From Sphingobacteriales bacterium (GTDB lineage Bacteria > Bacteroidota > Bacteroidia > CAILMK01 > JAAYUY01), in contig JAAYUY010000076.1 in the NCBI GenBank assembly GCA_012517435.1, positions 1,609 to 65,608 on the forward strand: 64,000 nucleotides of DNA, in the 5' to 3' direction. This document shows positions 1 to 36,339 of this stretch, piece by piece. The stretch's first letter is position 1, and each line of letters starts with the position of its first letter. The position numbers and the translations under genes are program-made. The notes below the pieces were generated by a model. It was not told where the DNA came from. It worked only from the letters and a program-made list of their open reading frames with translations, and made no database searches.

Positions 1-200
1 TTGATACCTACCCATTGATTGCGTGAGTCGAGGAAAGCCGACCATGTCCCATAATCGCCCGTATTGGCCGGATTGATTAAAATCCTGTTCAGATGATACA
101 GATCATACACGGGAAGTTGCTGTGCCGACAGAGAAAGTGAAAAAAGCATGGCAACGATCCATAAGTTTATTATCCTGTTCTTTTTCATTGTTTTGTTCAT
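1..200 (-). CDS. PorP/SprF-family T9SS-associated outer-membrane protein, N-terminal fragment. The gene continues past the window start.
   Basis: Hand translation of the minus strand from the ATG at 198-200 gives MNKTMKKNRIINLWIVAMLFSLSLSAQQLPVYDLYHLNRILINPANTGDYGTWSAFLDSRNQWVGI with no stop before position 1. It shows a signal peptide followed by AQQxPxY, INPA and RxQWxG motifs, which match the conserved PorP/SprF N-terminus. The start lies 7 nt after the stop of the upstream type-B CTD gene. Confidence 0.6.
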   Translation of the reverse strand, partial: MNKTMKKNRIINLWIVAMLFSLSLSAQQLPVYDLYHLNRILINPANTGDYGTWSAFLDSRNQWVGI

Positions 201-207
201 TTAGCGG

Positions 208-2271: not shown

Positions 2272-5200
2272 TTACCTCCTGAATATTTTATGTCTCAGCA
2301 CACCGTCTTTGGTCGTTATTTCAACCATGTAGAGGCCTTTCGCATAATTCATGAGGTCGATGCGGTGGCGATACTGTTTATCAAATACATCTCCTTTATA
2401 TTCGTCCATGACTGCCCCTTCGGAGTTAAGAACCCTGATATAGAGTTCTCCAATGTCCTGATTGGCTGTCATTTCCAGATTGACGTAATCGTCAGCAGGA
2501 TTGGGATAAATGACTACACCGATATACTGTCCTGAATTTTCATCACCAATGGATGTCGGATAAATATTGAGCTGTTTGGTGATTGTATCGCTTGTACAGC
2601 TATTGATAGCAATCAGTGTTACAGTGTATTTACCAGCTGCTTTATAGATATGTACCGGAGAATTGGCGGTGGAAGTTGATGCATCTCCAAAGTTCCATTG
2701 ATAAGATGTGGCATTCTTTGACTTATTGACAAATGATGCTGAATGGCTGTTGATGTACACATCAAAATCAGCTTCAGGAGGCAAGGTGTTGGAGCTGATG
2801 GTAATCAGCTTGCTCTGCAGGCAGAGTTTGCTGTCTTTTACCCAAATTTCATAGGTTCCGGATTTAAGATTGCTGAAAGTACCTGATGCCTGATAGTTGA
2901 CACCATCTTTCGAATAGGTGTAAGGTGCGGTACCACCTGCGCCACTTACCGTCAATGCACCGGTACCGTCATTCGGACAGTTTTCATTGGTGATGTTATC
3001 CACTTTAATGCTTAGTGGTGCGGAAGGTTCGCTGATGGTAACCTGCTGATCGGTCTGACAACCATTCTGGTCGATTACCGTAACCGTGTAAACTCCTTTC
3101 ACCAGATTGATAAAGTTGGAATCGCTGCGGTAATGTACTTTATCCAGCGTGAATTTATACGGTTTGACACCACCTGAGGCATGGACTGTAAGTTTTCCAC
3201 TGAAGTCGCCATAGCAGGCCACATCTGTCTTGTCGATGCTCTTGATGGTCAGTGCCTGTGCAGGCTCTGTGATGGTAAAGCTGACTGAATCAAGGCACAG
3301 GTTGGCATCTCTGATGTAGGCTTTGTAATTGCCTGCAGGGAGATTGTTGAAGTAACCACTGGCCTGGAAGGTAGTTCCGTTCAGGCTATACTGGTACAGT
3401 CCGGTTCCGCCTGTTCCTGTCAAAGATACACTTCCTGTTGAGCTACCCTTACAACTGACATTTGTTTTGGAAGCAACGGTTACATCGAGTGCAGCAATAG
3501 GCTCTGTAATGGTAACACCCTGGGATTCACTGCAGTTGTTGCCATCTTTGACGGAAACAATATAGTATCCTGCTTTCAGTCCGTTGAAGACATTGCCGGC
3601 CTGATAGGTCTTTCCGCCATCAGCAGAATACTGATAAGTACCGGTACCTCCTGTTGCTGTCAATGTAATGCTTCCGGTCATATCTCCCTTACATTTAACA
3701 TTGACTTTCGATACGGTAATGACAATCGGGTCAGGCTCTGTAATGACAAAACTGCCGGTATCCATGCATCCTCTCTGGTCTTTTGCAAAGACACTGTATG
3801 ACCCTTTGCCCAGCTTGACAAAATTACTGTCGTTCTGGTAAGTGGTTCCGTTCATTGAGAAGGAATAAGGACTGGTGCCTTTGTGTGCATGAACGGTGAT
3901 TTTACCGTCATTAAGCCCGGCACAGGTAATGTTGTAGGCATCAATGTTAATATCAGGTTTCGGATAAATGGTTACCGGAATGGTAAGGCTGTCGGAACAA
4001 CCATGATTGCTGGTGGCTACCAGTTTGACCTGATAGGTTCCGGCTGAAGCATACATTTTTGTTGCATGCATGGAAGTAGTGGTCGATCCGTCTCCGAAAT
4101 ACCATTTGTAAGTCAATACACCTGTATTGATGGAAGATGTATTGGTAAAGCTTGCCTGATTGCCATAACAAACATTGGCGGTTGTGAACGATACTGAAGG
4201 AGCATCGTAAACCGTTACTGATTTGGTAACGCTATCGGAACAGCCTTTATCAGAAACAGTAACCAGTTTTACCGTATAAGTGCCCGGAGCTGAATAGAGT
4301 TTGGTTGGATTAATGACAGTTGAACTTGAGCCATCGCCAAAATACCAGGTATGTGACATGGTACCGCTGCTGATGGTAGAGTTGTTGACAAAGCTGGCAC
4401 TGTGTTTATCGCAGACATTGGCCGTACTAAAGGAAACTTTCGGCATGGCATATACAGTGATGGTTTTGGTTGAGCTGTCTTTACATCCGTAATTGGAAGT
4501 GGCTACCAGTTTTACATTGTAGCTATTGGCAACAGAATAGGTATGGTTCGGGCTCATAACAGTGGAAGTAGCGCCATCGCCAAAGTTCCATGCAAACGAC
4601 ATTGATCCGGAAGTAATGGTTGAATTATTATAGAAGCTGGCAGAACTGCCTTCGCAAATATTGTTAAAGGTAAAGGATACCACAGGCATCGGGTAAACGG
4701 TTACCTGACTTGAGATGGTGGATACACAACCTTTATCGGAAGTAACTGTCAGTGTAACAGTGTAAGTTCCGGCAGCTGCATAAAGGTGGGCAGGACTGGT
4801 TTGCGTGGAGGTGGTGTTGTCTCCGAAATTCCACAAATAACTCATGGTACCACTGCTGATGGTACTGCTGTTGGTAAAGCTGGTGCTGGTACCGTAACAC
4901 ACATTGCTGGCACTGAATCCGGCAACCGGCAACGGATAAACAGTTACCTGCTTGCTTAAAGTATCAATACAACCTTTGTCAGTGGTTGCCTGCAACACAA
5001 CTGTAAAGGTACCACTGGCAGAATAGGTATGATAAGGACTTACATTATTGCTGCTGTTACCATCTCCAAATGTCCAGTAATAACTGTTGCTGCCACCCGA
5101 TACGGATGAGGTGTTTTTGAATTCAATGGCCGTTCCCTGACAATCATTATTGGCGGTAAAGCTGACTGTCGGCATTGGATAAACGGTTACACTTGAATTA

Positions 5201-8200
5201 TAAGTGGAAACACATCCTTTATCACTGGTAGCTTTCAGGCTTACGGAGTAAGTACCTGCCGAAGCATAGAGATAGCTCGGACTGGTGGAAGTTGAGGTAT
5301 TGCCATCTCCAAATGTCCAGTAATAGCTCATCGTGCCGGAGCTGATTGTACTCGTATTGTTAAATGAAACATACTGTCCGTCACAGACATTATTGGCACT
5401 AAAGCCTGCAACCGGCACCGGATTGACATTCACAGTCTTGACCACACTTGCCACACAACCCTTATCGCTGGTGATGACCAGTTCAACGCTGTATGTTCCA
5501 CTGGAGGCATAAGTATAGTTCGGGCTGACGTTGTTGGAAGTATTTCCATCTCCAAATTTCCAGAGATAACTCATTGATCCTGAAGAAATAGTTGAATTAT
5601 TGGAGAAGCTTACAGCATTGCCGTTACATACATCATTGGCAGTAAATGAAGCAACCGGCATCGGATTCACAGTAACTGTCTGAGTTATACTGTCTTTGCA
5701 GCCGTTTGATGTACTGACCACCAGTTTGACGGTATATGTACCGGCTGATGCATATTTATATTTAAAGCTTGTTGCTGTGCTTGTGTTTCCATCACCCAGA
5801 TACCACATATAATCCATGGTTCCTGAACTGATAGTGCTTGTATTGGTAAATACTGTTGAGTCACCTGAACAAACCGTTGTAGCGCTGAAGCCTGCATGTG
5901 GTGCAGGATAAACCACCACCTGTTTAATCAGACTGTCTTTACAGCCATTGTTGGTGGTTGCTATCAGTTTTACGTCAAATGTTCCTGAACCAGTATAGGT
6001 ATGTGTCGGGCTGGTGTTGGCTGAAGTTGATCCATCACCAAAGTTCCAGCTATAGCTATTGGTACCGCTACTTACACCTGAATTATTGGTGAAGGAGACC
6101 TGATTACCTTCGCACACATTGGCAGCAGTGAAGCTGACCACCGGCATCGGATAGACTGTTACTGTCTTGCTGATGCTGTCTTTGCAGCCATTACCTGAGG
6201 TAACTACCAGTTTTACCGTATAAGTGCCTGCAGATGCATAGGTGTAAACCGGATCGGATGAGGTGCTGCTGTTGCCGTCTCCGAATGTCCAGACATAACT
6301 CATCGTGCCGCTGCTGATCGTGCTCGTGTTGGTGAAGCTGGTGGCTGTGCCTTTACAGACATCGCTGGCATTGAAGCCTGCCACAGGCTGCGGATACACT
6401 TCTACGGTCTTCACCAGACTGTCCACACATCCATTATTGGTAGTGGCTATCAGTTTTACACTGTATGTGCCACTGGCTGAATAGGTATAATTAGGACTGG
6501 TATTATTCGAGGTGTTGCCATCTCCGAAATTCCACAGATAGCTGTTACTACCGCTGCTTACACTTGAGCTATTGACAAAGTTCACAGCCTTGCCGTTGCA
6601 GACATTGGCGGCTGTGAAGCTGACCACCGGCATCGGATAGACCGTTACTGTCTTGCTGATGCTGTCTTTGCAGCCATTAGCTGAGGTAACTACCAGTTTT
6701 ACCGTATAGGTGCCTGCAGATGCATAGGTGTAAACCGGATCGGATGAGGTACTGCTGTTGCCGTCTCCGAATGTCCAGACATAACTCATCGTGCCGCTGC
6801 TGATCGTGCTGGTATTGGTGAAGCTGGTGGCTGTGCCTTTACAGACATTGCCGGCATTGAAGCCTGCCACCGGCTGCGGATACACTTCTACGGTTTTCAC
6901 CAGACTATCCACACATCCATTGTTGGTAGTGGCTATCAGTTTTACACTGTATGTGCCACTGGCTGAATAGGTATAATTAGGACTGGTATTATTCGAGGTA
7001 TTGCCATCTCCGAAGTTCCACAGATAGCTGTTACTACCGCTGCTTACACTTGAGCTATTGACAAAGTTCACTGCCGTGCCGTTGCAGACATTGGCGGCTG
7101 TGAAGCTGACTACCGGCATCGGATAGACTGTTACCGTCTTGCTGATGCTGTCTTTGCAGCCATTATCTGAGGTAACTACCAGTTTTACCGTATAGCTGCC
7201 TGCAGATGCATAGGTGTAAACCGGATCGGATGAGGTGCTGCTGTTGCCGTCTCCGAATGTCCAGACATAACTCATTGTGCCGCTGCTGATCGTGCTGGTA
7301 TTGGTAAAGCTGGTGGCTGTGCCTTTACAGACATTGCCGGCATTGAAGCCTGCCACCGGCACCGGATAGGCGGTTATTGTCGAAATGGCTGTATCTTTAC
7401 AACCCTTGTCCGAAGTGGATATCAGGGTAACAGTATAAGTATTTGCAGTAGTATAGGTATGTAACGGATTGACCGAAGTTGATGAGGTATAATCTCCGAA
7501 GTCCCAGACATGGGTTAAGGTGCCGGAACTTACAGTTGAAGTATTGCTGAAGCTAATGGATTTTCCGGTACAGTTGTCGGTAGCACTGAAGGCAGATACT
7601 GGTTTTGGATAAATACTGATTGATTTGACCGTTGAATCCTTACATCCGAAGTTGCTTGTGGCTACAAGGGTAACATTGTAGCTGCCATCAGCATTGTAAT
7701 AATGACTGGGTGATGCAGTCGTGCTGCTGCTTCCGTCTCCGAAATTCCAATTACTGGTAAACGTTCCGCTGGTGATATAGGTAATATTGTTAAAGCTTGC
7801 ATTCTGGCCATAGCAAACGTCATTGAGGGTGAAGTTAACAATCGGATTCGGATATATGGTCACGTTATAGGTGAATACATCTGTACAGTTATTGTCAGTT
7901 ATCACTGTTAAGGTTACCACATAAGTACCTGAAGACTGATAGAGATGTTTCGGGTGCTGAACTGTTGAAGAATCACCATCGCCAAAGCTCCAGATATAAC
8001 TCATGGTTCCTGAAGAAAGGGTCGAAGTATTGGTAAACACAGTAGAATCGCCAAAGCAATTGTTATTGACAGTGAAGGAAGCTACCGGCAGCGGTGTAAC
8101 CTTAACAACAGAAACTGCTGTGTCGCGGCAACTGTAATTGGAAGTAACTATTAACTGAACGGTATAATTACCTGCCGAATTATAAAGATGAACCGGGTTC

Positions 8201-11200
8201 TTAACTATAACTGCCCCACTGCCATCTCCCATGTTCCACAGATAAGAGGTAATGCTGCCACTGCTTACACTTGAAGAATTGTAGAAGTTAATGGCCTGAT
8301 TGACACATCCTGCATCATGCGTAAATACAGCATCAGGTTTCGGATATACTGTCAATGTTTTGACAACTGTATCCTTACACCCTTTATCGGTTGTTTCAAC
8401 CAGCATAACATTGTAATTGCCTGATACAGCGTATTTATGCTTCGGATGCTGGTCAGTTGAGTTATAGGTATCAGCAAAGTCCCAGTAATGAGTAGCAATG
8501 CTTCCTCCTGAAATGGTGCTGAGGTTGGTAAAGGCAAGGGTATCATCCAGACAGGCATTGGCTACACTGAAGTCAACACTGCTCTGCGGATGGACGGTAA
8601 TCTGTTTTGTCAGTGAATCTGTACATCCATTGTTGGTGGTCGTAATCAGTTTAACATCATAAGTTCCTGCAGAAGCATAAACTTTACCTGTTGGATTTTG
8701 CAGGGTTGAGCTGCTACCATCTCCAAATGTCCATGCAAATCCGGTAACTGATCCTGATGAAACAGTCGAACCGTCTGTGAAATCAAAGCTGTTGCCTTTC
8801 AGACATTGCTTGTCGTTGTTGATGCTGAAGCTGACTGTTGTTTGCGGATCTACCGTAACTGAGCTGCTGGCAGAATCCAAACAGCCATTATTGGTGGTAA
8901 CAATCAGTTTTACAGTGTAAGTGCCGGCTGAAGTATATACCTTGGTCGGATGCTGGGTGGTGGCATTGCTGCCATCTCCAAATGTCCAGTTCCAGTTGGT
9001 AATGCTACCGGAACTAACCGTTGAAATATCTGTAAAGCTGAAGCTATTGCCGCTCAGACATTGTTTATCGTCATTGATATTAAATCCGGCTGTTGATTGC
9101 GGATAAACAACAACATTCTTAATAACTGAATCAATACAACCTTTATCGGTAGTAACCATCAGTTTGACTGAATAGGTTCCGGCTGCAGAATAGCTATGTG
9201 TCGGGTTTTGAGATGATGATACATTTCCGTCTCCGAAACTCCATGACCATCCGGTTATACTTCCCGAACTGACTGTAGAATTATCTGTAAAGCTAAAGCT
9301 GTTGCCACTCAGGCATTGCTTGTCGTCATTAATGCTGAAGTCGGCAGCAGATTGCGGATAAACGGTAACGGATTTACTGACAGAATCCTGACATCCGTTG
9401 TCTGTTGTTACAATCAGTTTCACCGTATATGTTCCGGCAGAAGTATAGGAATGGGTTGGATTCTGAGTTGTTGAGGTTCCTCCGTCTCCGAAGTTCCAGT
9501 TCCAGGCAGAAATGCTACCTGAACTGACCGTTGAAAGATCAGCAAAGCTAAAGCTATTGCCACTCAGACACTGTTTATCGTTGTTGATACTGTAATCAGC
9601 CACAGATTGCGGGAATACAATCACTTGTTTGACTATGGTATCTTTACATCCGTTGTCAGTCGTTACAATCAGGGTAACGTCAAAGGTGTCAGGTACGGAA
9701 TAGGTCTTTCCTGAAGGATTTTGTGCAGTTGATGTGGTTCCGTCACCAAAATTCCAATCGTATGATACAATAGAACCTGAACTGACTGTACTGGTATTTG
9801 TAAAGCTGAAGCTGTGACCACTGTAACATTGTTTGTCATCGTTAATGGTGAAGTCAGCCATTGGTTTGGGATAAACAGTAACTGTTTTTACAACGGTATC
9901 TTTACCACCAGTATTAGTGGTTACAATAAGCTGAACATCATAGGTTCCTGATGCAGAATATTGATGGGTCGGATGCTGAAGGGTTGATGTAGTTCCATCG
10001 TCAAAGTCCCAGTGATGTGAAACAAATGTTTGTCCCGGAGGTGCATAACTGGTATTGGTAAAGGTGGTTGTAAAGCCGTAACATTCGTTGGTATAGTTAA
10101 AGTTTGCACCCGGCTTCGGATAAATAATCAACTGATTGACCTGAGTATCTTTACAACCGTAGTCAGAGACAACAATCTGAGATACATAGAAGGTATCATA
10201 GGTCAGGTATTTATGTTTTGGATTTTGCAGGGTGCTGTTTGTTCCATCATCAAAATCATAATAGAACCCGACAATTGATCCACTTGTGATAGTTGAGGAG
10301 TCGGAGAACTGAACAGTATCGTCAATACTTGAATTCGGGGCATAGAAATCGGCTACCGGTTTCGGATAAACGGTAATGTTATTGGTTGTAGAGTCTTGAC
10401 AACCATTGTTGGTTGTAACTATCAGTTTTATGGTGTAATTGCCCGGGTTGCTGTAAATGTGGCTTCCATTAGTGGATGAACTGGTGTTGCCATCTCCGAA
10501 ATTCCAGAGGCTGGCGGTTATTGAACCACTTGAAACCGTACTGGTGTTGAATGTAGTTGCAGGATTTTCACGACAGGTATTTCCTGTAGTAAAAGATGCC
10601 ACCGGCTGTACATCTACGGTAACTTGTTTGGTAATGCTGTCTTTACAGCCATTGTTCGTGGTAACTACCAGTTTTACATTATATGTTCCGGCTGTACTGT
10701 ATGTCTTGGCAGGAGGATTCTGACTGGTGGAAGTCGTTCCGTCTCCAAAGGTCCAGTAATAGCTCGTAATCGTGCCTGATGACACTGATGAATTATCAGT
10801 ATAGGTAAAGCTGTTGCCACTCAGACATTGCTTATTGTCATCTATGGTAAAGTCAGCTACAGGCTGAGGATCGACTGTTACCTGTTTCGTGATGCTGTCT
10901 TTACAGCCATTGTTCGTGGTTGCCACGAGCTTGACATTGTATGTGCCGGCTAAGCTGTAGCTGATTCCTGACGGATTCTGGCTGGTCGAAGTGTTCCCAT
11001 TGCCAAAGGTCCAGCTCCAGCCACTGACACTGCCGCTTGATACGGTGCTGCCATCGGTAAAGCTGAAACTGTTTCCGCTCAGACATTGCTTGTCGTCAGC
11101 TATGCTGAAGTCGGCTACCGGCTGCGGATCGACTGTTACCTGTTTCGTGATGCTGTCTTTACAGCCGTTGTTCGTGGTAACTACCAATTTGACATTATAT

Positions 11201-14200
11201 GTTCCGGCTGTGCTGTATGTCTTGGCAGGTGGATTCTGACTGGTGGAAGTCGTTCCGTCTCCAAAAGTCCAGTAATAGCTCGTAATGGTACCTGATGTTA
11301 CTGAAGAGTTATCTGTATAGGTAAAGCTGTTGCCACTCAGACATTGTTTATTGTCATCTATGGTAAAGTCAGCTACAGGCTGCGGATCGACTGTTACCTG
11401 TTTCGTGATGCTGTCTTTACAGCCATTGTTCGTGGTTGCCACCAGTTTTACATTATAAGTACCGGCTAAGCTGTAGGTGATTCCTGACGGATTCTGGCTG
11501 GTCGAAGTGTTCCCATTGCCAAAGGTCCAGCTCCAGCCACTGACACTGCCACTCGATACGGTGCTGCCATCGGTAAAGCTGAAGCTGTTTCCGCTCAGAC
11601 ACTGCTTGTCGTCAGCTATGCTGAAGTCGGCTACCGGCTGCGGATCGACTGTTACCTGTTTCGTGATGCTGTCTTTACAGCCGTTGTTCGTGGTAACTAC
11701 CAGTTTTACATTATATGTTCCGGCTGTACTGTATGTCTTGGCAGGAGGATTCTGACTGGTGGAAGTCGTTCCGTCTCCAAATGTCCAGTAATAGCTCGTA
11801 ATCGTGCCTGATGACACTGATGAATTATCAGTATAGGTAAAGCTGTTGCCACTCAGACATTGTTTATTGTCATCTATGGTAAAGTCTGCTACCGGCTGCG
11901 GATCGACTGTTACCTGTTTCGTAATGCTGTCTTTACAGCCGTTGTTGGTCGTTGCTACCAACTTGACATTGTAAGTACCAGCTACACTATAGGTGATTCC
12001 TGACGGATTCTGGCTGGTCGATGTGTTCCCGTTGCCAAATGTCCAGCTCCAGCCACTGACACTGCCACTCGACACGGTGCTGCCATCGGTAAAGCTGAAA
12101 CTGTTACCGCTCAGACATTGCTTGTCGTCAGCTATGCTGAAGTCGGCTACCGGCTGCGGATCGACTGTTACCTGTTTCGTGATGCTGTCTTTACAGCCAT
12201 TGTTGGTCGTTGCCACCAGCTTGACATTGTATGTGCCGGCTGCACTATAGGTGATTCCTGATGGATTCTGGCTGGTCGAAGTATTCCCATTGCCAAAGGT
12301 CCAGCTCCAGCCACTGACACTGCCGCTCGATACGGTGCTGCCATCGGTAAAGCTGTAACTGTTACCGCTCAGACACTGCTTGTCGTCAGCTATGCTGAAG
12401 TCGGCTACCGGCTGCGGATCGACTGTTACCTGTTTCGTAATACTGTCTTTACAACCGTTGTTCGTGGTAACTACCAGTTTTACATCATAAGTACCGGCTA
12501 AGCTGTAGCTGATTCCTGATGGATTCTGGCTGGTCGAAGTGTTCCCATTGCCAAAAGTCCAGCTCCAGCTTGCAATGCTGCCACTCGACACGGTGCTGCC
12601 ATCGGTAAAGCTGAAGCTGTTCCCGCTCAGACACTGCTTGTCATCAGCTATGCTAAAGCCGGCCACCGGATTCGGATTGGGAGCTATCGTAGCTGTTGCC
12701 GTATCATTGCTGGCATCCGGGTCATTTTGCCCGTTTGGCTTATAGCTGACAGCTACAATATTTTCATTTGATGTAAAGTTATGAATACCAATACTGAATG
12801 TAATACTACTATCGGTCGGTAAGGAGCCTGTCCAGTAATAAGTAGTCTTGGGCACACCGTTGACGCTCCACCTGATGCTATCCTTGGTCAGGTAATTGGC
12901 TCCGTTGTTTTTCAGGGTAACATATACAGCATAATTGCCCGGACAACCCGGAGTGGCAGTAACAGAGACCAGTTGTGCATCATTTTCACGGCCTTCATCG
13001 GCTCCGATATATGGAGCAGAGGTGCTTCTGGTGGCTCCGTCAATATCCGTTGTAACAAAAGAAGTTACCGGGGTACCAGCCTTCATGGTATCTGTTTTTA
13101 CATGAAGATCGGTATTGCTGACAAAATACGGATTTTTGCTGATTGAATTCTGATCAAGGCCGGAGGCTGAATTCCATGTGGCCAGACTTGAATAGTTTGT
13201 GGAATTATAATATACCAGGTCGCTGCCTGTCGTACGAAGGTTATTGTAGTCAAACTGTGTTATGGTAGCTACAGAAGACATCGGGATATAAACTGCATAT
13301 CCTCCTCCGCTGTTGTTGAAAATATTGTTTTTGAAATAAAGACCTGAAGTGGTGGCATACAGGTATAATGCGGAGCTGTTGTTGGCTCCGGTGGTAATGT
13401 TTACTGAATTGTAGTAATAATCTGTATAATGCGAATTGTAGGAATAAATCCCATAATGAGTATATGAAGTACTGCTATTAGTGATTGAAACAAAGTTGTT
13501 GGCTACAAGGTTACGGTTGGCTGCGGTATTGTTGTCTCCGTTAAAGTAATAGAGATAAATTCCATAAGCAGTGTTAAGTCCCTGAAGCTGAATTTTATTG
13601 TTCTGTATCTGGGTCTTGGTGGTTCCGTTGACATAATAAACACTGGAGAAATAAATACCGTATTTGAAATTGGATGAATTGATATCAATGATATTGTTGT
13701 TGAACTTATTCCCGTAATAGCAGTTGATAGCATATATACCATAAGAAGCTACATTGATGGAATTGTAACTTACATCAGAAGTATAGGCTATCTGATTGAT
13801 ATTAATACCGTAAAAACCTACAACTGGTGAAGATATGGTATTATTGGTGATGGAAATACCTCTTTGCTGATTGACATTAATACCCTGATAGGTAAAGTTT
13901 TTAATGGTATTGTAATCAATCTTGTTCCCATAAACGACCGGATAACTATATCCATTCATCACCACACCGTTATAGCCATTTTCAATGGTATTGTATTGAA
14001 CCTCATCATATTGGCAATAGTTTCCTGAACCGGTTCCGACAAAAGAAACCACATCAGAATTGTTTCCATTCACGCTGGTCGAACTGCTAATAATATGGTT
14101 ATATTTTATTTTGACATAATTGGCTGAGTTGGTGGCGTAAATAACCCTGTTATACGTATTGGAAGTATTGCGGATGGTCAGGTACTGGAAGGTAATGTAA

Positions 14201-17200
14201 TCGGTACCATTGAGGCTGATTACATAGTTGGTGGATGAAGTAGAGTTGCCGTATGTCAATATAACCTTTGAAGTATCATTATCTTCCGACTTGAAAGTAA
14301 TGGTATTGACAGCTGAAGCACCCGGAATCTGTCCGAGTTCAAACTGCTCGTTATAAGTTCCGGCTCTGACATTAAAGGTTACCGGCCCGCGCACACCGCA
14401 GTTATTAAGGAAAAATGCAGCATCGGAGAAGGTGGCAAAATTGGGGGAAGTACCACCAATGGTATAATTACCGGACAATGCGGCACAAATGTAGCCTGTG
14501 GCTGTATCATTGGCGGGTTTGTTGTCTGTCGTGGCATTTGGTTCACTGGTGTTGGCCACAATGGTATAGAGAATACCATCTGAAACACTCACATTTCCAA
14601 GACTTTGCGTTGCGGTTTGTCCGCTTGTCAGTGAGCCGCCCCATGCTTGCTGGCTCTGAGCCGTACCATTGACTTTCCAATTGACTTTTGCACTGGTCAA
14701 GGTATTCAGACCATAGTTTTTAATGGTTGCTGAAATGCTCTTGGTACCAGGGGCATATGGCGGTGTAGGACCTGTAATGGCATACACGCCTGCATCATTG
14801 TTGACAGGCACTGTACCTGAAATATTAATATCATCAAAGATAACTGCTTCATTACCTAACTGATAACGTGATTTATAGGAAAATTTAAGTTGCGTGGTAC
14901 CTGATACCGATTGCCCTGCATTCCGTAATACATCACTGATACTTGCAGAAGCATTTTTCCATGTCATATCGCCAGCACGATTGGCACTGATATCATATAA
15001 TAAAACCCATGGTGTAGAAGGATCATTATTTCCTCTTACCCAAACTCCATCTTCAGCAGAATATTGGCGATACATCTGATACATGTACCAGAAAGAAATA
15101 TCCAGGTCAGTAGCTCCAACATAGTTGCTGAGATTCAGGGTAAGAATCAGATTACCAACTGCCCAGCTATTGAAAACAGCATTATCGATCAATGCAGCAT
15201 AAGCGCCTCCGGTCGTGTGATTATAAACCGAACCTGCATTCATTTGCAGACGCGACTGATCAGTGGGTGCAGGAACTGATTCAAACTGCCATTCTTCCAA
15301 TCCACTTCCATTGAGCGGCCTTGTTGAAGCGGTGTAGGTATATGGTGTTGTGGCGGTTTCAAAATCTTCACTATACGGCAAGGTAAGCGGCAACATATTG
15401 ACCATTCGGCTTCCTGTCGGATTTTGATCTGTTGTCGGATACAAAGAACCATTGACAGAAATACTGTTTGCTTTTATTTTGGCATCTACTGTATTAAACC
15501 AGACTGCATTCGAAGTAATGTCATAGGTGATCCAGAGATATGTTGTTGAATTGCCCGGTAAATCATAATTAATAGAATTCCATTTCACTGAGCCTCCGGA
15601 AAGTACTTTTCCCGTACCAACAGGAACGGCTGTTGAGAAGGTTGGCGTTGTGGTCCGGAACAACCTGACCGTGTCAATATCGCTGTTTGAAGTATTGACG
15701 GCAGTAACCTCCAGTGAATCAAGATAGAGGTTGCTGGTGGTTCCATTTACAACAAAGTCAAGCCTTAATACAGGATAATAGTTGGAATCCCTGTAAACAT
15801 CATCTGTCGAGGGCTGAACATATTCAATACGGCTGAGCACCTTATCATTGGTTATTTTTCTGAAGCCTGCAGGAGCAGTAACGGTATTTATTCTGGCCGT
15901 ATCATCAACGATAACCGTATCACATTCAGCATCAATGGTGTCGCCTATATTGGCTCCGCTCTTTACGTCATAAGCAAGCCAGAAATAGTTGGTACCTGCC
16001 TGGAGTTCCTGTGTTCCGGTAATGATAAACCGGCCATTGGGTGCACTGACCGTACTGCCAAACTGATTGGCAATGCTGAAATTATTACTGGTTCCTGTAT
16101 AGTACAATCTTGCATTTTGAATGTTGGTGGTGGGTGAATTGGTTCCGTTGGTGGTGAAAGAGAATTTGCTGGCAGAAATAGCACTATCCTCTCCGCTTGT
16201 AACAACCTGAATACCAAGAATCTGGTTGTAGGAAGAACCCGGAGTCACATTGCTGGTAACACTTTGCGTGGTCGTGGAAGACACATATTTCATGGCCGGC
16301 CTGATTTCATCGGCACCAATAGTAGGTGTGGAAGTACTGCGGCTGTGTCCGTCAATATCTGTATTGACATAAGTAACCGGGGTTCCTGCATTGAGCTGGG
16401 TGTTCCATGTATGCAGGTCATTTGCACTCCAGAACGATGGATTGTAGTTTTTGGAATTGGCTTCGAATGGTGTTACTGCTGTCTGCCAGTTGGCAAAACT
16501 GGTATAGGATGAACCATTCAGATAGCCAATATAGGTTCCGGTAGCATATATGTTATTGTAATCAGAAGCCTGAGGAACATAGCTGGAAGCAATATATACA
16601 GCATAACCTCCGCCTGTATTGGAAGCTATATTGTTGTAGAAATAATTGTAAGTGTTTGTTGATGAGTGATTAAAATACAAGGCGGCAGAAGAGGTGGAAC
16701 CATTGCGGATGCTGATGCTGTTGTGAATAAAATCTGTATTGTTACAGCTGGTGTACTGCACTCCGTAACAGGTTCCCGTACCGTTGTACAGCGAAACAAA
16801 GTTATTGGCAATCAACCATCTGTATTCTACACTTGAACCATTACCCTGTAAACTGTTCATGTATATACCTACAGAAGTTGAAGAAGAGGTTGTTCCCTTT
16901 AATATCACCTTGTTCCTCAACACGGTGGGTTTAACCATATTATCATTGTAGTAACAGCTTGTCAGATAGATACCTACCTGAACATAGGTGCTGTTGATGG
17001 TAATCTGGTTATCGTTTACCCTCGGGCCATAGTAACAGGAGGTGAAGTAAATACCGTACTTGGTATTTGAACTTCCATCGAGTAACACAGTGTTTCCGAT
17101 GGCTTCTGTCTGGTAATAACACTGGGTGATATAAATACCATAGTTTATATATGTATTGTTGGTTCTGACCGTATTGTAATCGGCTTTGGCAGCTTTCTGG

Positions 17201-20200
17201 TTGTAAATAAACACACCATAGTAGTAGAAACTATCAACAAGGTTGTAATTGAATACATTGCCTTCGGAATAGCTCGGGGAATAGCCACCCCACCTGAAGC
17301 CATAAGAACCGTATTTCACCACATTATAGGTAAATGTATTAAAGGTGCAATGTGTGCTTTGTGATGTATAATAAGAATAGACAACTGCATTGGCATCACT
17401 TGTATTGGTGGAATAATAACCAATAAAGATATTGGAGGTGAAGGTATTGTAGTTGGCCTGGTTGGTCAGGTCAACGACTCTTGAATAGGTAGTACCAAGG
17501 GCTTTGATGGTCATTTTCCGGATGATGATATAATCAGCTCCGTCAAGCTTAATGGTATAATTGGCAGTGCTTAAAGTAGCGGAATATTGCAGTGTAACCT
17601 TTGTACTGTCATTGCTTTCACTCTGGAAAGTAATGGTATTGGTAGCCGAAGAACCGGTGATGGATGGAATAACCACCTGCTCGGTATAAACACCATTTCT
17701 GACATTAAAGACGACAGGGCCGCAAATACCCTGCGTGCTTAAAGCAGTTACAGCTGCGTTAAATGAAGCGAAATCAGGACTTGTGCCGCCAATCGTGTAG
17801 GTCCCGCTCATCCCCCTGTAAATATTATTCCCATAAACCGTATCATTTCCTGTTTGAGTCTCAGCATACTGTCCGTTGAAATAAGAAACATATACCTTGA
17901 AATTGTAGGCTGTATTTGTACTCAAAGTGTATTGTCCGATAACAACCTGTGCGGTATCTCCGAAACTGAGATTTCCTGTCCATGCATAAGGTGTTTGTGC
18001 CACCCCGTTAACAGTCCACCTGATGGTATCACTGGTAAGCGCTGCAGTTCCAAAGTTTTTGATGGTTACTTTTACATCGGCCGTAGCGGCACAACTCGGA
18101 TGAACCGGGCTAAGAATTGCAATAATTCCGGCATCTCTGGCGATGGGTTTCAATTCATAGGCTCCTATGGTCGGAGTGTAACGGGTACTGTCGAAAATAT
18201 CGGTAGAAATGCCTAGTCCGGTAACTCCGCGGTTGAGTGAATAATTGGAATGGCTTAAATCGGTGTTGCTGACAAATCCCGGATCAATATTGACTGAATT
18301 GGCATCCCAGCCTGAGCCAGCCTGCCAGGCACTTAGCGTGGTATAGTTTGTTCCATTGTTGCATAAGTACAATGAATTGGTATAGAGATCATTATAATCG
18401 CAGGATGCTACATAATCATTGGGTGACAAATAAATAGCATAGCTGTTTTTGTTTACAACAATATTGTTTTTGACATTGTTATAGTAATTGCTGCTTCCGG
18501 ATAAATACAAACCTGCATTGGAAGTTGTATTTGATGGTCCTGCCTGAACATTTACGCTGTTGTGATAAATGTTGACGTATTGACTTGAATATACAGCAAG
18601 TCCGTAAACTGCACTCGAAGTATTGCTCCCGTAAATAGAGATGTAGTTGTTAAACACAGCGAAAGGCACAGATGAATTACCAGAACAACTGTTCATATAC
18701 AAGCCGTAATCACTACCAGGTCCTTTCAGGAAGATTCTGTTTCTCGAAATTTCGGAGCCAGTGCTACCTGTCGAAGTATTGCTGTTAATCAGATAAATTC
18801 CATATTCACCGGTTATAAGCGACCTGCTTCTGATCAGGTTTCTCTGAATTTTTATATCATACTGATAATAAGAATATATCCCGTAAGTGTAGAAGGAATC
18901 AATGGTATTACTGATGAAGGCATTTCTGTATTCGTAAGGGGAAGCATCTCCAAACCAGTAGATGGCATAGGAGCCATATTTGATGGTGTTCCCCTGAATG
19001 GTAATATCGTTACAGGTATTGGCCCCTGAAGAATAATTATAGATAACGGTATAGATATCACTGGACGACAGGAATGTCGAACCGTAAATCTTGTTGTTCA
19101 GAATGGTAATACTATCATTGTTTCCTTTAAACTCAATTACTCTTCCGTAAGCCGAAGAGCTGGTCTGGATTTTAAGGCCTTTAATGGTGATACATTTGGC
19201 ACCATTGAACCGTAAGACATAATTGGTCAGAGAGGATGACGGAGCATAGGTCAAAACGGCATCATAGGTATTTGCCGGATCGTTCTGGAAAGTAACCGAG
19301 CGGGACTGGATAGCACCAGGAATGGCTGGTATTTCAATCTGTTCATAATAAGTACCCTGGCGTACATTAAAGACAACATTTCCGCAAACACCATAGGTAA
19401 CCAAAGCATTGACGGCTTCAGTAAAGCTGGAATAATCGGGTGAACTGCCACCGATGGTATAGGTGCCGCTTAAGCCTGTTCTGATTCCTGCTGAAGTGCT
19501 TGTGTCGTTTGTCGGATTGCCATCTGCCTGCGTACCGTTGAAATAGGAAGGATAAGCCTTGATTGTATAGCTGTTTCCGGCTGTGAAACTATAGGCTCCT
19601 ATGTTCACATTGGCCGTCTGGCCTGAAGCCAGTGAGCCTGTCCATGCATAAGGTGTCTGAGCTGTACCGTTGATGCTCCAGCGGATGGTATCACTGGTCA
19701 GTGTTGTGCTACCAAAGTTTTTAAGGGTAACGGTAACATTCCCTGTCAGGGCACATAAGGGCACTACCGGATTCAGGATGGCTGTAATTCCGGCATCATA
19801 GGCCGGCTGAATGTATTCATAAGCACCCACTGTCGGGCTGATCCTTGTGGTTCCGAATATATCGGTAGTAACACCCGTCCCTGTAACGCCAAAATTCATG
19901 GTTGAACTATAATGCCTTAAATCGGTATTTGAATAAAATGACGGATCAAGATCCTTTGAATGATCATCCCATGGGGAATTGAGAATCCACTGGCTTAAAG
20001 AAGACTGATAGCCATAAGTCCCTGAATAAATGAAATAGTTACCATTGGTATAATAATCATTGTAATCACAGGCTGAAAGATAGTTGTCGGGATACAGATA
20101 CAAAGCTAACCCCTGATTTTTATGAACACCAATGTTATTAACAAATTCATTGTATTGACTGCTGCTTCCATACAGATAATAACAGGCTGAAGCAGACGAG

Positions 20201-23200
20201 TTTGCCTGACCGGCCAGCAGGTTAACCGAGTTGTGATATAATTTGTTGTAACTACTGTAATATAAATAAATACCATAAGTGGTACTGGTAGTCCCTCCTG
20301 TGATGGATACAAAGTTATTGTTAACCGGAATAGCCTTTGTTGAATTTGAACGGCAATAATTCATATATATGCCATAGTTTGTCTGGGTCGAGCGTAACAT
20401 GATATTGTTACCGGTAATGGCAAGGGATGTATCGCAATAATAAAGGTAAAGTCCATATTCCGTACTGTAAACGCCACGGCTCCTCAGGGTGTTTTTATCC
20501 AAAGTCAGGTAGCAATGGTAATAGAAATACATCCCCATATAGTAGAATGAATCCAGGGTGTTACCGGTGAAATTATTTGTCCTTTCAGGATCAGAGGTGG
20601 AATTACCCATCAGGTAAACGCCATAGGATCCATATTTCATCGTATTGTTGGTGATATTGGAACGGTGTAACTGATTGCCTGATGTTCCATACAGCAATGC
20701 CAGATTGGTAGAAGCCCAGTTTCCTGATGCAGCATTTCCGGTACCTTCTATCCAGTTGCTGTCGAGGGTGAGATATTCATTAGCACCGGTAAAATTAAAT
20801 ACAGTTCCGTAAATGGTGCTTGTATTGATAAATTTAATCTTCTTGAACGTAATATAACTGGTTGCATTGAACCTGACAATCCAGTTGGTGCTTCCTGTTC
20901 CGGCATAGGTAAGTACCGGCATCTGGGAGTTGCTGTAATCAGAACGGAAGGTAACTGTATTGGATGAAGAAATACCTGAAATGGCTGGTATTGTAATTTG
21001 CTCATTATAGGTTCCCTGCCTGACCAGGAAGGTTACCGGCCCGCATACTCCATAAGTCTGAAGTGCAGTTACTGCTTCGGTGAAGGAGGAGAAGGTCGGG
21101 CTGACGCCACCGATGGTCAGTGTGCCGCTAAGTTTCTGCAATATTCTGTTCTTGTACAGATCATTGGAAGTATTGTTATCCGTGCTGTTGTTGGGGTCTT
21201 CTGTCCATGCATACAGGGTATCTCCGTAATTCATGTTGATACTTCCTGCAAATGCATAATCGTAATAGCCATTCGAAAGAATAGTGGTAACAACTTTAAC
21301 TGATGTAACAGTACCGTTGTAATTCACTTTGTATTTTACCCACACGGAATCAATGGTAGCTGTTCCGTAGTTTTTGATTCTGACAGTTGGGGTAACACTT
21401 CCCGGACAAACTGCCGATGAGGGGCTGACAATGGCTGAAATACCTGCATCCAGTGTGGCTACATTATATTCATCAGCACCCGGATCAGGAGTTGAAGCAT
21501 TTCTGCTTTCATTGTCGATGTCGTCTGCAACTAACCATGACAAACCTACTCCTTTATTATTCATGTTGGTATTTGACGCATGAAGATTGGTGGAAGAGAC
21601 AAAATTTGGATTGTAGTTTACTGCACTTGAATCTTTGGCTGTGGCTGTTTTCCATGCAGCAAGGTCTGTTCTGGCTCCTCCCCAATAACCCAGGTAGGTT
21701 CCAGTTGTATAATAGTTGTTATTGTTCATCCATCTGATTGCAGTATTGGTGCTGTAATAAGCACAATATCCCGCTGCAGTATTCACAAAATTGTTGTTTA
21801 CCACATCCACACTATTGGTAACCTGAACACCGGTTACATAAAATGCATAATATGATGATGATGATGATGCGACATGTATGGTATTGTGTACAAAATCAGT
21901 ATAGCCCGGGGATGAAAAATATACAGCATAAGCATAACCAGAAGGATTATTGGTCAGACTGATAAAGTTATTGGCTATCAGGTTTTTGTACGTCATGCTG
22001 TTTCCCCATCCTGAAATATAATATAAACCGTATTGATATATATAATAACTGCTATTTCCTATCAACCTGACATTGTTTTTCAGTACGGTACTCTTTTGTG
22101 AACCGTAAGCAGAATCCATGCTTTGCAGATAAATACCATATTGATAATAAGCAGTTGTTGTTCCTGTATAAGTCAGGGTGATGTCGTTTTTGTTTACCTG
22201 ATTCCCGCTGTAGGGATAGTACAAACTGATGCCATATTGATAATAAGTTCCGCTGATGGATATGGTATTGTTGTTAAACTGATTACCAAAATAGGAATAA
22301 TATGAATAAATACCGTATCCCGTTGAGGTTGTTCCTGTTGTGGTAATAGTGTTATTATTCACCTGGCATCCGTAATAAAAATAATATGTATAAATGGGAT
22401 AATAAGCAGCCGCAGAGGGGGACTGCAAAATATTGTTATTAATTTTTATTCCTCTCTGGTTGTAAGCATAAATGCCATAATAGTAAAAGTCTTTGCAAAC
22501 ATTGTATTCAATTACATTGTTCCATGTATAAAGATTCAGTGAGGCATTGGTATAACCATTCAGGTAAATACTTGCGGAACCGTTTTCAATTCTGTTGTAA
22601 CGGATGGTAACATTCTGAACCCTGTAATTGGCCATTGAGCCGTCTGAATAAATGACAGCATAGCCTGTTCCGCTGCTTGTCGTGGAAACACCTACCAGGC
22701 GGTTGTTCAGAATATATATTGAATCTGTTCCGTTGGCAATATCTATGACTCTGTTGTATCCGCTTGTGGAGTTGTTCCAGATGGTCAAATAGCGAAGAAT
22801 AATATGGCTGGTATTGAAAAGTTGTACAATGTACTGCCCGTATTGTGTGGTAGCGTCATAATAAATAGTTACCTTGGAACTGTCGAGGGCTTCCGACTGG
22901 AAGGTGATGGTATTGGTAGCAGAGGCTCCTGAAATGGCTGGAATGCTGAACTGTTCGGTATAGGTGCCATTTCTGGCATTGAATACCACAGGCCCGCACA
23001 CACCATTGGCTATCAGGGCATTTACTGCAGCTGTAAAGGTCGGATAGTCCGGAGAAGTTCCGCCTATGGTATAATTTCCACTCATTCCCCGCTGTATGCC
23101 GGTAACGTTCAGGGTATCGTTACCGGGATTAATATCTGCTATGGTTCCATTGATGTAAGAATGATATACTTTGAAAGTATAACTGCTTCCTGTATTGATA

Positions 23201-26200
23201 TTGTATGTTCCAAGTACCACCTGTTCTGTATCTCCCGGTATCAGTAGTCCGGTCCATGCCACCGGTGTCTGGCTTACTCCGTTCACTTCCCAGCGAATGG
23301 TGTCGCTGGTAATGTTGTAAGTTCCCAGATTCTTTATTACCACCTTAACTGTCTGCGAAGTTGAACAGATTGGTTTGACAGGTGACAGCAGTTGTGTCAC
23401 ACTCAGATCATAACCACTTGATGGTTTTTCATAGGCTCCGATGGTAGGAGCAATTCTTGCAGAATCAAAAATATCAACTGTTATACCCAGTCCGCCAACA
23501 CCTACATTCAGGTTATTGTTGTTGTGTCGGAGATCGGTATTGCTATAGAAACCCGGAACCTCAACAATGGAATGGGCATCCTGCAGCGTTCCGGCTCTCC
23601 ATTGCGAAATGGTATTGTAAAATGTGGAATTGGCATATCCGATAAAGGTTGCATAGAAACAGTTATAATCGCTTGCTGATACATAATCTATCGGGCTCAG
23701 ATACATGCAAATGCTGTTGCCATTGTATAAAATATTGTTTTTTACGATATTGTTGGAATTAGTACTTCCTGATAAATACATACAGGTGTTACCTGTTGTT
23801 CCTGCTGAGCCAACCACAATGTTTATGCTGTTGTGGTAATATTTGTGCCATGTACAACCAGATGAGTAAATACCATAGTTTGACCCTGTACTTGTGCCGG
23901 TATGTGATATGAAGTTATTGGCAATCAGACCGGGGGATGATAGTGTCCCGATGCCCTGGATGATATACATCCCATAATTCGTGCTGGTGGACCTGACCTG
24001 TACGTTATTTTGGGTAATTTCCAGTGCATTGTAACAATAATAAGCATAAATTCCATATTCAGTGCTGTATGCCCCCATTCCTCTTATTGTGTTTTTATTG
24101 ATTTTCAGGTTGCTCTGATAATAATTATATAACCCATAATAATAGAAGGAGTCAATCAGGTTGCCGGTAATTTCATTGGCTTCTTCCATATCAGACGAAC
24201 TGACTCCATAGGTATAAATACTATAAGAGCCATATTTAATCACATTATTCTTGATTTTATTGTAATTTGCCTTATTGGCAGTAGAAGTATTGTGATAAAC
24301 AACTGCCTGTGATGTTGATGTAGTTGAACCAATATATCCGTATAAATAGCAGCTTTCAACGGTATTATAATTTGTCAGTCCCTGGAATACAACTACATTT
24401 GCGTAGGTTGTCCCCAATGCATAGAGTTTCATTCCTTTCCATGTTACATAATCTGCTTCATAAAAGCGAAGTACCCAGTTATCGCCTGTTCCTGTAGCTG
24501 AATAGTTAATAATAACCGGATTGGTATTGGCCGGGTCAGGCTGGAAGACAATATAATTGGTAAGCGAAGCACCGTTGATTTGCGGAATGGTAATCTGAGT
24601 ATTGTAAGTTCCTTCTCTGACATAAAAAATAGTCGGGCCGCAAACACCCTTGTTGGTGAGATCTGTAATGGCATCATTAAAGGTAGCATAATCGGGGCTT
24701 GACCCTCCGATGGTATAAATGCCGCTCATCCCTAACTGGGCAATAGTTACAACAGCAGTAGCAGTATCATTATAAATATTCGGGTCTGTCTGAGTGTTGT
24801 TGATGACCTTGCCTACCCAAGCCTTGACGGTGTAGGTTTGTGAGACGGTAAATGAATAAGTTCCGATGGTAACATTTGTGCTGTTTCCGGAAGCCAGTGT
24901 ACCACTCCATACATAAGGAGTTTGTGCAGTTCCGTTTACCGACCAGAAAATGGTATCATGGGTTAATGTCTGTAAACCATAGTTGTTAAGGGTAACAATA
25001 ACGGAAGAACCGCAGAAAGGAACAGATGGAGACACGATGGCTGAAATACCGGCATCATAGGAAGGTGTTTTGTATTCATAAGCCCCAACTGTAGGTGTAA
25101 CCCTCACAGTATCATAGATATCTGTGGTAATTCCAAGTCCGGTTTCCCCGAAATTCATGGCATTGCTGAAATGCATAGGACTGTTGACCCATGGGAACTG
25201 CGGGTCAACACTCATTGAATTGGCATCCTGCAGGGAGGTGGATTGCCAGTTGCTCAGGGTGTTGCAGTTGGTACCTCCCCAGTTTCCGAGAATGGTTCCA
25301 TTTGTATAGAAGTCATTATAGTTGCTGCTGGTAAATGTGGCGGTAGATGCCGTATAAATGCAATAACCCGATGATTTGTTGACAAGAAGATTATTCCTCA
25401 GTTTTATGGTATTGTTGGTAATTGGTGTAGAGAAATACATACAGACATTGGAAGTAGAAGATGGTCCGGCATAATTTACCACAGAATTGTGGTAGAAATT
25501 GACATAGTTGGTGTAATAAACATAAAAACCGTAAGCTGTTCCGGTGCCACCGTTAATTGAAACAAAGTTGTTGGCTACCGTATGGGTGTTTGCTAAATCT
25601 GTTCGGCAATAATACATATAAACACCATAAGAAGTATTTGATGAAGTCCGGGTGTGAATTATCTGATTTTGCTGAACACTCACCAGGGTATCACAGTAAT
25701 ATAAATCCAGACCATACAACGTAGTAGCAGATGGCCCGCCTCTGACAATATTTTTATTAATCGTGGTTTTTCTGTTGTAATATAACCACAATCCTTCCTG
25801 ATAGAAAGAGTCAATCAGGTTACCGGATATATTGTTCAGGTATTCATACGTACTTTGAGAGGTACTGTTTCCATACAGATAAATACCATAAGATCCATAT
25901 TTAATGGTATTATTGGTAATGTTGGTATATTCTGTATTGTTCCCGGAACCTGAAAGGTCATAGATAACCGCATAATTGCTTCCGGTACTGGTGGAATAAA
26001 GTCCCTGAAAGATATTGCTGTCGAGGGTAATGTATTTGTTGTTCCCCTGAAATTTTACAACATTTGCATAACCAGTTACAGAATTATTTATTATTTTCAG
26101 TTTCTTTACGGTAATATAATTTGCCCCATTGAACATGATCACATAAGGAAAGCTTGAAGTTCCTGCATAATAAATTACAGGAGTAGTGCTGTTGGCCGGA

Positions 26201-32369: not shown

Positions 32370-32375
32370 TCAGTC

Positions 32376-33824: not shown

Positions 33825-33888
33825 ATTTGCATATCTGATTTAATTCTCAATTTTGATTCGAAATTAAAATGCTACTTTTTGCAAAATA

Positions 33889-35646: not shown

Positions 35647-35649
35647 TAT

Positions 35650-36339
35650 ATGAGCAAAACACAAAAATACGTTTTAATTGGCATGGGTGCTTTTGGCCAG
35701 GAAATAGCCTATACCCTGAAAGAGTACAATGCTGAGCTTATTATTATCGATAAAAATGCAGATACTGTCGCACAACTCAAACGCGATGGTTTTCCATTTG
35801 TCGTCCAACTCGACTCAACAGACGGCTTTTCACTTGAAAAATTTGTCTCTCCTGACGATATTGTCGTCCTTTCTATGGGCGAATCTTTTGAAGATAATAT
35901 CGTTACGGTTGGAATTCTGACCAGAATTGGTGTCAAAAAAATTTATACTCGTGCTACCCGGATTATTCATGAAGAAATTCTGAATCAGATGAAAAACACT
36001 ATTACTCTCTTCCCTGAACGTGAGGAAGGTAAACGGGTCGCTCTTAAACTGCTTTACAAAGAATTTTATTTAATTGAGGAAATTTCTCCGGGAATTTTTC
36101 TTTGTGAAATGGATGTCCCTGAATCATTTGTCGGCCAGACAATTATAGAACTTGATGTCAGAAACAAATATGGAATTAATATCATCGGACTGAAAAAGCA
36201 TTCTGAGGATAATGAAGGTCTCATTTCCTCTGAAATGCAGGTTATTGGTTTTGAAAAAGTAATACTTGAAAAAAATCATATACTTGCCTTTCTGGCTAAT
36301 GAGAAAAATATGGCTCAGATGTTAAAGCATAAATTCTGA
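35650..36339 (+). CDS. KtrA/TrkA-like RCK-domain K+ transport regulatory subunit
   Basis: 229 aa. The N-terminal Rossmann motif is VLIGMGAFGQEIAYTL, and a TrkA_C-type C-terminal domain follows. The start is 3 nt after the KtrB-like gene stop. Confidence 0.85.
   Translation: MSKTQKYVLIGMGAFGQEIAYTLKEYNAELIIIDKNADTVAQLKRDGFPFVVQLDSTDGFSLEKFVSPDDIVVLSMGESFEDNIVTVGILTRIGVKKIYTRATRIIHEEILNQMKNTITLFPEREEGKRVALKLLYKEFYLIEEISPGIFLCEMDVPESFVGQTIIELDVRNKYGINIIGLKKHSEDNEGLISSEMQVIGFEKVILEKNHILAFLANEKNMAQMLKHKF

Follow-up and report, generated by a model that had tools for sequence, protein, structure and literature searches.

The window analyzed here, a stretch of 64,000 nucleotides of contig JAAYUY010000076.1 from the assembly GCA_012517435.1 of a Sphingobacteriales bacterium, carries on its minus strand an open reading frame (ORF) of 9405 amino acids. 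Judged from its sequence features the encoded protein is a giant secreted surface protein of about 1 MDa and a type A cargo of the type IX secretion system (T9SS). Within this gene lies a tandem array of eight PKD units, which the original prediction, made from the sequence alone, had regarded as virtually identical and as the product of very recent expansion or ongoing gene conversion. Our analysis showed that these units are old, selectively maintained copies and not new near-identical ones. Taken as a whole, we consider it probable (roughly 70%) that the eight units, termed D1–D8, form the portion furthest from the membrane in a stalk of 35 PKD domains, were amplified long ago and have since evolved mostly independently under purifying selection.

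The existence of eight in-frame tandem units of 258 bp in this gene was confirmed, and the predicted coordinates held to within 10 nt. Using a period of 258, Tandem Repeats Finder (TRF) delimited the array at 10625–12677 with 8.0 copies, 78% matches and a score of 2303. When longer periods were allowed, a period of 516 was found over the same span with 4.0 copies, 89% matches and a score of 3094. All eight units are exactly 258 bp (86 amino acids) long, lie in frame and are free of indels, and together they constitute the N-terminal end of the 35-domain PKD tract (Table 1). Two types of unit, A and B, are present as had been proposed. A strict alternation of the two types fails, however, since only six of the eight units alternate (A A A B A B A B in gene order, or B A B A B A A A along the plus strand).

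In pairwise comparisons of the eight units, DNA identity was 85.3–95.3% among A units, 91.1–95.0% among B units and 70.5–75.6% between A and B units, while the 516-bp super-units were 93.0–95.2% identical. No two units differ by fewer than 12 nt, and pairs of the same type differ at 12–38 nucleotides, most of them synonymous. The longest exact repeats in the array measure 100, 98, 92 and 80 bp, and identical tracts of 40–100 bp join units at offsets of 258, 516, 774, 1032 and 1290 bp. With such values for the TRF matches, the A–B identities and the longest exact repeat, the description of the array as virtually identical DNA over about 2 kb does not hold. Five exact copies of a 32-mer taken from the unit tail are present, and a sixth copy has one mismatch; 0 occurrences are expected by chance. 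At the protein level, interior units of the same type differ by at most three residues, and identity reaches 98.3–98.8% for the AB super-units of 172 amino acids, 89.5% and 97.7% for the adjacent A–A pairs and 74–77% for adjacent A–B pairs. The distinction between A and B is restricted to codons 1–66 of the unit. The units at the array edges are the most diverged of their types, namely unit 1 among the A units and unit 8, in its tail, among the B units, as expected if exchange concentrates in the array interior.

Divergence estimated by the method of Nei and Gojobori gave synonymous values (dS) of 0.22–0.82 and nonsynonymous values (dN) of 0.005–0.058 for units of the same type, with a ratio of the two (omega) of 0.01–0.11. 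For A–B pairs dS was saturated (at least 1.0) and dN amounted to about 0.17–0.19. As the differences between the copies are mostly synonymous, every copy is under purifying selection as protein.

A strain-level calibration was available from the same gene. The window is 99.99–100% identical to two contigs from run ERR1876141. The second strain is represented by the metagenome-assembled genome (MAG) GCA_035450825.1 ("Bacteroidia bacterium") and contig NODE_21993 of ERZ795051, and is 99.06–99.24% identical over 10.2 kb. Between strains, the proportion of synonymous sites that differ (pS) was 0.0315 over 3.5 kb and 0.0417 over 4.4 kb, and that of nonsynonymous sites (pN) was 0.002–0.003. The closest units of the array (u5–u7, u4–u8 and u4–u6) show a pS of about 0.19–0.21, which is 5–6 times the strain-level value of 0.03–0.04. 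Hence the units were clearly last amplified, or homogenised as wholes, before the sampled strains split, and the very recent expansion suggested originally finds no support. A recently converted whole-unit pair was not found among the eight units, all pairs having a pS of at least about 0.2.

Recombination has left a trace in the last 20 codons of the units. For interior units, the A–B comparison gives a pS of 0.76 in the head (codons 1–66) and of 0.21 in the last 20 codons, the latter value being similar to the 0.27 found for tails within a type. This contrast between head and tail is significant for each adjacent A–B pair (Fisher p 2e-4 to 3e-3). In the control sets, which comprised D12–16, the C–D pairs, D1–8 versus D12–16 and 136 background pairs, tail pS was 0.68–0.88 and about the same as head pS. 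Since the contrast is restricted to A/B pairs, the tails of the two types have a more recent common ancestor than the heads, and such a mosaic can have arisen only by gene conversion or by an unequal crossing-over that broke near codon 66. The shared A/B tail records past recombination or conversion, whereas on ongoing gene conversion the data speak neither way. Over all eight units the pairwise homoplasy index (PHI) test was marginal (p 0.04–0.09) and was not used as evidence. Amplification of an AB or a BA dimer as the sole history of the array was rejected, because the closest pairs (u5–u7 for type A, u4–u6 and u4–u8 for type B) match neither phase.

In E. coli, RecA-dependent exchange requires about 25–30 bp of identical sequence, and a divergence of a few percent is enough to lower it strongly. 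Because the units diverge by 5–15%, the present rate of exchange is likely to be low. In-frame gain or loss of blocks of 258 or 516 bp may still take place, although much more rarely than in perfect arrays, and copy number was probably stable over the time scale of strain divergence.

Within the gene, DNA identity decreases from 96–97% in D22–D26 through 85–95% in D1–D8 and 58–73% in D12–D16 to a background median of 54%, and these graded identities fit repeated rounds of tandem amplification, each followed by decay. The older block D12–D16 holds the closest relatives of the A and B units within the gene (60–69%). The D22–D26 array (TRF span 6112–7368, 2.6 copies) has a pS of about 0.09–0.10. 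As it is younger and its units are 96–97% identical within type, the wording of the original prediction suits this array better than the one it was written for, and the array at 6112–7368 is the better candidate for recent expansion or length variation.

The units are PKD domains. Each of the eight reaches 114–118 bits with a profile derived from the gene's own domains, they are assigned to PKD_4/PKD in Pfam, and the WxFGDG-type motif is present as WTFGNG in type A and WTFGDG in type B. The AlphaFold2 model of an A+B pair is all-beta with two beta-sandwiches (pLDDT 95.3, pTM 0.79). In Foldseek the model matched PKD1 of PrtV (4l9d) with a TM-score normalised by the target (TMt) of 0.91–0.92 and a root-mean-square deviation of 1.2–1.3 Å. 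The two-domain model matched consecutive Ig-like domains of the GhpA stem (9flw) with a TM-score normalised by the query (TMq) of 0.68, and GhpA was also the best sequence match in the PDB (E=1.9e-78 over 10 stretches). Each unit contains two conserved cysteines at codons 12 and 72 (KQC and NNGCKD, e.g. window 11377–11634).

The order along the 9405-amino-acid protein is a signal-peptide-like start, beta-helix and CARDB-type modules, 35 PKD domains, SprB repeats, one further PKD domain and a type A C-terminal domain (CTD). The N-terminus, MKRAVLNFIVFIAVTVLFSVTESRGQ, looks like a signal peptide when judged by eye. According to Pfam, the N-terminal half contains BNR_assoc_N, NosD/beta-helix and CARDB, and the C-terminal half 36 PKD_4 stretches, four SprB repeats and Por_Secre_tail. 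PKD_4 (PF18911) scored 1633 bits over 36 stretches, PKD (PF00801) 839 bits over 33 stretches and Por_Secre_tail (PF18962) 39.3 bits. In NCBIfam, TIGR04183 scored 41.6 bits against a cut-off of 23 at residues 464–539 of the final 542 amino acids. A profile built from the units located 35 back-to-back PKD domains at residues 5942–8845 and a single one at residues 9240–9313. The PKD units thus have the beta-helix modules on their N-terminal side and the T9SS sorting domain on their C-terminal side, a position which is consistent with the stalk that had been predicted. No adhesive domain was identified in the protein.

The N-terminal two thirds of the protein (residues 1 to ~5940, window 12667–30489) consist of at least nine modules of ~550–650 amino acids, each opening on a T(I/L)GGxSPxY...TF motif (TxTIGGxSPxY type), after which come a beta-helix-like region rich in Tyr, Ser and Thr and a CARDB-like domain. 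Two BNR_assoc_N domains lie within this part. When residues 1–1400 and 4331–5941 were searched against PDB sequences, the sole match was a marginal one to 4q6k, a BNR/Asp-box repeat protein, in residues 4331–5941 (E=1.6e-4).

We propose that an 86-amino-acid PKD unit was duplicated and then split into types A and B. A units (258 bp) and A–B pairs (516 bp) would next have multiplied through unequal homologous recombination of misaligned units, and this recombination, or gene conversion, would be the reason why the two types have their last 20 codons in common. The copies would then have evolved mostly independently, synonymous changes accruing while purifying selection held the amino-acid sequence. 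Each unit may serve as a spacer, so that the eight units would hold the N-terminal beta-helix modules further away from the outer membrane.

The known arrays most relevant for comparison belong to the Periscope Proteins, for example the SasG, Rib and Sgo_0707 SHIRT arrays (Whelan et al. 2021, PMC8201768; review PMC9704523), among which the most extreme variation in repeat number occurs in the arrays of highest identity (PMC8201768). Like these, the protein described here is a single-chain surface protein with an array of folded domains of more than 50 amino acids and high protein identity, which is placed between the anchor end and the distal modules, and intragenic homologous recombination is proposed for changes in length. 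The screen used for Periscope Proteins looks for repeats of more than 50 amino acids with at least 80% protein identity (PMC8201768), and it picks up the A–A pairs and the AB super-units, the adjacent A–B pairs (74–77%) falling below the threshold. In contrast to Periscope arrays, which are near 100% identical in DNA, identity here is 85–95% within and 71–76% between types. Moreover, export would proceed via the T9SS in an uncultured environmental member of the Bacteroidia and not in a sortase-anchored protein or autotransporter of a pathogen, and the array makes up just 8 of the 35 stalk domains. As its DNA falls short of near-identity, we do not count the array among the Periscope Proteins, whose defining property is variation of repeat number between strains, and prefer to describe it as a segment of the PKD stalk in a giant type A cargo of the T9SS.

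GhpA of Aureispira sp. CCB-QB1 is a T9SS substrate of 5898 amino acids with a stem of 52 repeats (PDB 9flp/9flw), in which disulfides join nearby Ig-like domains (bioRxiv 10.1101/2024.01.29.577165). Both proteins are giant T9SS substrates of Bacteroidota in which tens of Ig-like/PKD repeats, varying slightly, follow one another, and both have a PorP/OmpA-type gene nearby. However, the N-terminal region of the present protein is made of beta-helix modules and has no hook, and the PorP_SprF-OmpA gene follows a separate 686-amino-acid protein with a type B CTD instead of the giant gene. PDB sequence searches with residues 1–1400 and 4331–5941 revealed no similarity to GhpA outside the PKD tract. 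As the match is confined to this tract, orthology to GhpA was rejected. The protein shares with SprB-type proteins and fibrillar adhesins (PMC8286594) a length of thousands of residues, a beta-sandwich stalk, SprB repeats (PF13573) and a T9SS CTD, which is type B in SprB and type A (TIGR04183) here. By analogy, the 9405-amino-acid protein may work like the stalk of GhpA or SprB without being an orthologue. Long runs of Ig-like extender spacers are also found in RTX adhesins of the MpIBP/SiiE type (PDB 5irb, 2yn3), with weaker fold matches. Those adhesins differ in using a type I secretion system and another domain family (BIg repeats). The repeats of MpIBP are essentially identical in DNA sequence, unlike the units analyzed here.

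The array was rightly predicted to be a hazard for assembly, as three independent short-read assemblies end inside it. The Logan contig of ERR1876141 ends at window position 12613, 54 nt into unit 1. For that run, the ENA megahit (k127) contig stops at 11913, within the tail of unit 3 and 20 nt short of the junction with unit 4, and the SPAdes contig of the second strain breaks at 10730 inside unit 8, as does the MAG scaffold built from it. These positions were derived from partial gene lengths (5959 and 6192 amino acids) and BLAST coordinates. In addition, the MAG of the second strain has a gap of 100 N within the 486-bp array, from window 7224 to 6698. Either a low coverage of k-mers or a heterogeneous population at the A-to-B junction may explain the break at 11913. 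Length variants of the array were not seen in public data, in which the only other strain breaks inside unit 8.

Near-identical relatives of the array are scarce. A scan of GTDB species representatives with the array protein yielded 459 PKD tracts with a best amino-acid identity of 46%. Among 5.8 billion proteins searched, the sole near-identical match was the fragment P0001 (99%), the next best reaching 42%. The unit-tail 32-mer had no exact match in JGI metagenome contigs. With the best relative at 46% identity, the A and B units are specific to this species, which is rare in public data.

Three other explanations have to be weighed against the age and selection pattern of the units. A contingency array of the Periscope type, young or actively homogenised, in which RecA-mediated shifts in copy number tune stalk length and antigenicity, would account for in-frame repeats of more than 50 amino acids whose protein identity (98–99% for AB super-units, 89.5–97.7% for adjacent A–A pairs) passes the 80% screen (PMC8201768), for identical tracts of up to 100 bp, for the common A/B tail and for three assemblies that break in the array, one of them, at 11913, where exact repeats give no explanation. 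We nevertheless regard it as unlikely, because DNA identity is only 85–95% within type and 71–76% for adjacent A–B pairs, the closest pS of about 0.20 is 5–6 times the strain divergence, no whole-unit pair was recently converted, the PHI test is not significant and no length variant was observed; the largest variation in repeat number belongs to arrays of the highest identity (PMC8201768), and this array is not of that kind. Rather unlikely, too, is the broader proposal that this array and the 486-bp array 3 kb away are a working length-variation module which extends the Periscope principle to T9SS cargo. If it were true, in-frame gain and loss of PKD units would allow an uncultured member of the Bacteroidia from the environment to adjust how far a T9SS appendage of about 1 MDa extends, and the contig break at 11913 would be the trace of copy-number heterogeneity within one population. 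A second explanation, a recombination-proofed array in which selection for near-identical domains is combined with a synonymous scrambling that suppresses recombination and fixes the length, agrees with near-identical protein in the face of 12–38 mostly synonymous nucleotide differences per same-type pair and with the GhpA stem as the closest solved relative. It is scarcely credible, since the lengths of identity runs match a random placement of synonymous changes, none being significantly shorter (smallest P = 0.11) and those of u4–u8 being longer, and the N-terminal regions have no similarity to GhpA. Proofing by evenly spaced synonymous changes was accordingly rejected; neutral decay under purifying selection suffices.

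An assembly artefact, in which copies were collapsed, expanded or mis-ordered or in which strain haplotypes were strung together as tandem units, has in its favour that three short-read assemblers failed to cross the array. We judge it very unlikely: the eight units are all different, any two by at least 12 nt, they stay in frame and conform to the PKD consensus with an omega of 0.01–0.11, and their mutual pS of at least 0.2 is far above the strain variation of 0.03–0.04, so that they are not haplotypes of one unit. With a longest exact repeat of 100 bp, reads of at least 150 nt can in principle resolve the array, and the partial gene from ENA, at 6192 amino acids, has the length, though length only, that a gene colinear with the window over units 1–3 would have. 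The eight-unit structure of the window looks coherent, with the proviso that exactly identical extra copies would be invisible.

The interpretation of D1–D8 as an old, independently evolving part of a stalk has evidence against it as well. The pS of a unit rests on just ~56 synonymous sites. The PHI test within type A was not significant (p 0.23–0.36), and half of the informative site pairs of type A are incompatible, which points either to very short conversion tracts or to multiple hits; with a dS of 0.3–0.8, multiple hits can yield such incompatibility. No exact repeat of at least 127 bp exists in the window at 11913, which leaves the megahit break without a repeat explanation. Finally, the role as a stalk is drawn by analogy with GhpA, SprB and fibrillar adhesins, and PKD domains can also bind ligands.

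Table 1. Positions of the giant gene, its PKD domains and the repeat units in the window.
Feature	Position	Strand	Remarks
Giant T9SS cargo gene	2272..30489	minus	9405-aa ORF
T9SS type A C-terminal sorting domain (Por_Secre_tail / TIGR04183)	2284..2511	minus	
Uninterrupted tract of 35 PKD domains	3955..12666	minus	81–86 aa each; median pairwise DNA identity 54%
D22–D26, younger array	6142..7356	minus	order C-D-C-D-C; 486-bp two-domain super-unit; 96–97% DNA identity within type
D12–D16, older block of 85–86-aa PKD domains	8581..9861	minus	58–73% mutual identity
Array of 8 x 258 bp (D1–D8)	10603..12666	minus	aa 5942–6629; gene order A A A B A B A B
Unit 1, type A, edge	12409..12666	minus	most diverged A; 85–90% identity to other A units
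Unit 2, type A	12151..12408	minus	
Unit 3, type A	11893..12150	minus	
Unit 4, type B	11635..11892	minus	
Unit 5, type A	11377..11634	minus	
Unit 6, type B	11119..11376	minus	
Unit 7, type A	10861..11118	minus	
Unit 8, type B, edge	10603..10860	minus	last ~30 nt diverge towards next PKD domain
60-nt unit tail (last 20 codons, TTNNGCKDSITKQVTVDPQP), example	11119..11178	minus	low-coordinate end of every unit; common to A and B

Directly downstream of the giant gene (window 1–2268) lies the gene of the 686-amino-acid protein, which has five PKD domains and a type B T9SS CTD (CHU_C / TIGR04131) and for which no exact record was found. It is followed by the gene of a PorP_SprF-OmpA fusion, whose first 188 nt are window 1–188 and which was seen in the sister-strain locus (8070–11700). 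This arrangement recalls ghpA-ghpB(PorP)-ghpC(PorE), and the PorP-type partner probably serves the type B protein of 686 amino acids. The presence of type A and type B CTDs in neighbouring genes together with the PorP_SprF-OmpA gene is an indirect sign of T9SS machinery in the host.

Further giant genes are found in the window. A third array at 38938–40219 (period 504 bp, 2.5 copies, 97% matches) lies in the neighbouring ORF 36390..44996 on the minus strand, whose product of 2868 amino acids combines a Peptidase_M23 domain with 16 PKD stretches and a T9SS CTD of type A. The ORF at 46045–62493, also on the minus strand and with a TTG start, encodes 5482 amino acids with NosD/beta-helix and seven CARDB stretches, similar to the N-terminal half of the 9405-amino-acid protein; a search of its last 4999 amino acids at E<=1e-4 gave no T9SS C-terminal domain. 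Between the giant surface-protein genes lies a TrkA-TrkH-TrkH-TrkA set for potassium uptake (31026–36339, plus strand), which served as the anchor for finding further contigs.

A long-read MAG of the Prolixibacteraceae (CAXXIY010000001.1, 1–3312) contains, in a further giant protein of the Bacteroidota, two adjacent arrays of an Ig-like repeat other than PKD, 234 bp x 4.3 (98%) and 258 bp x 8.9 (92%). High-identity arrays were nearly absent from the short-read MAG loci examined, a scarcity which probably reflects a failure to assemble and thus a systematic bias. The locus described here is a proven breakpoint for short-read assemblers, and gene models in MAGs are truncated at it, as exemplified by the fragment P0001.

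The array is an ordinary feature of giant T9SS surface proteins, tandem PKD/Ig-like stalks being common in Bacteroidota, and in view of the 459 related PKD tracts of the genome scan and the 52-repeat stem of GhpA there is little in it that is biologically new. It does show that near-identity of protein can hide synonymous divergence, so that dS of arrays which appear identical has to be checked before recent expansion or contingency is concluded. Once long-read population data are at hand, the arrays of three ages in this gene may furthermore make it a small model of how domain arrays arise and decay.

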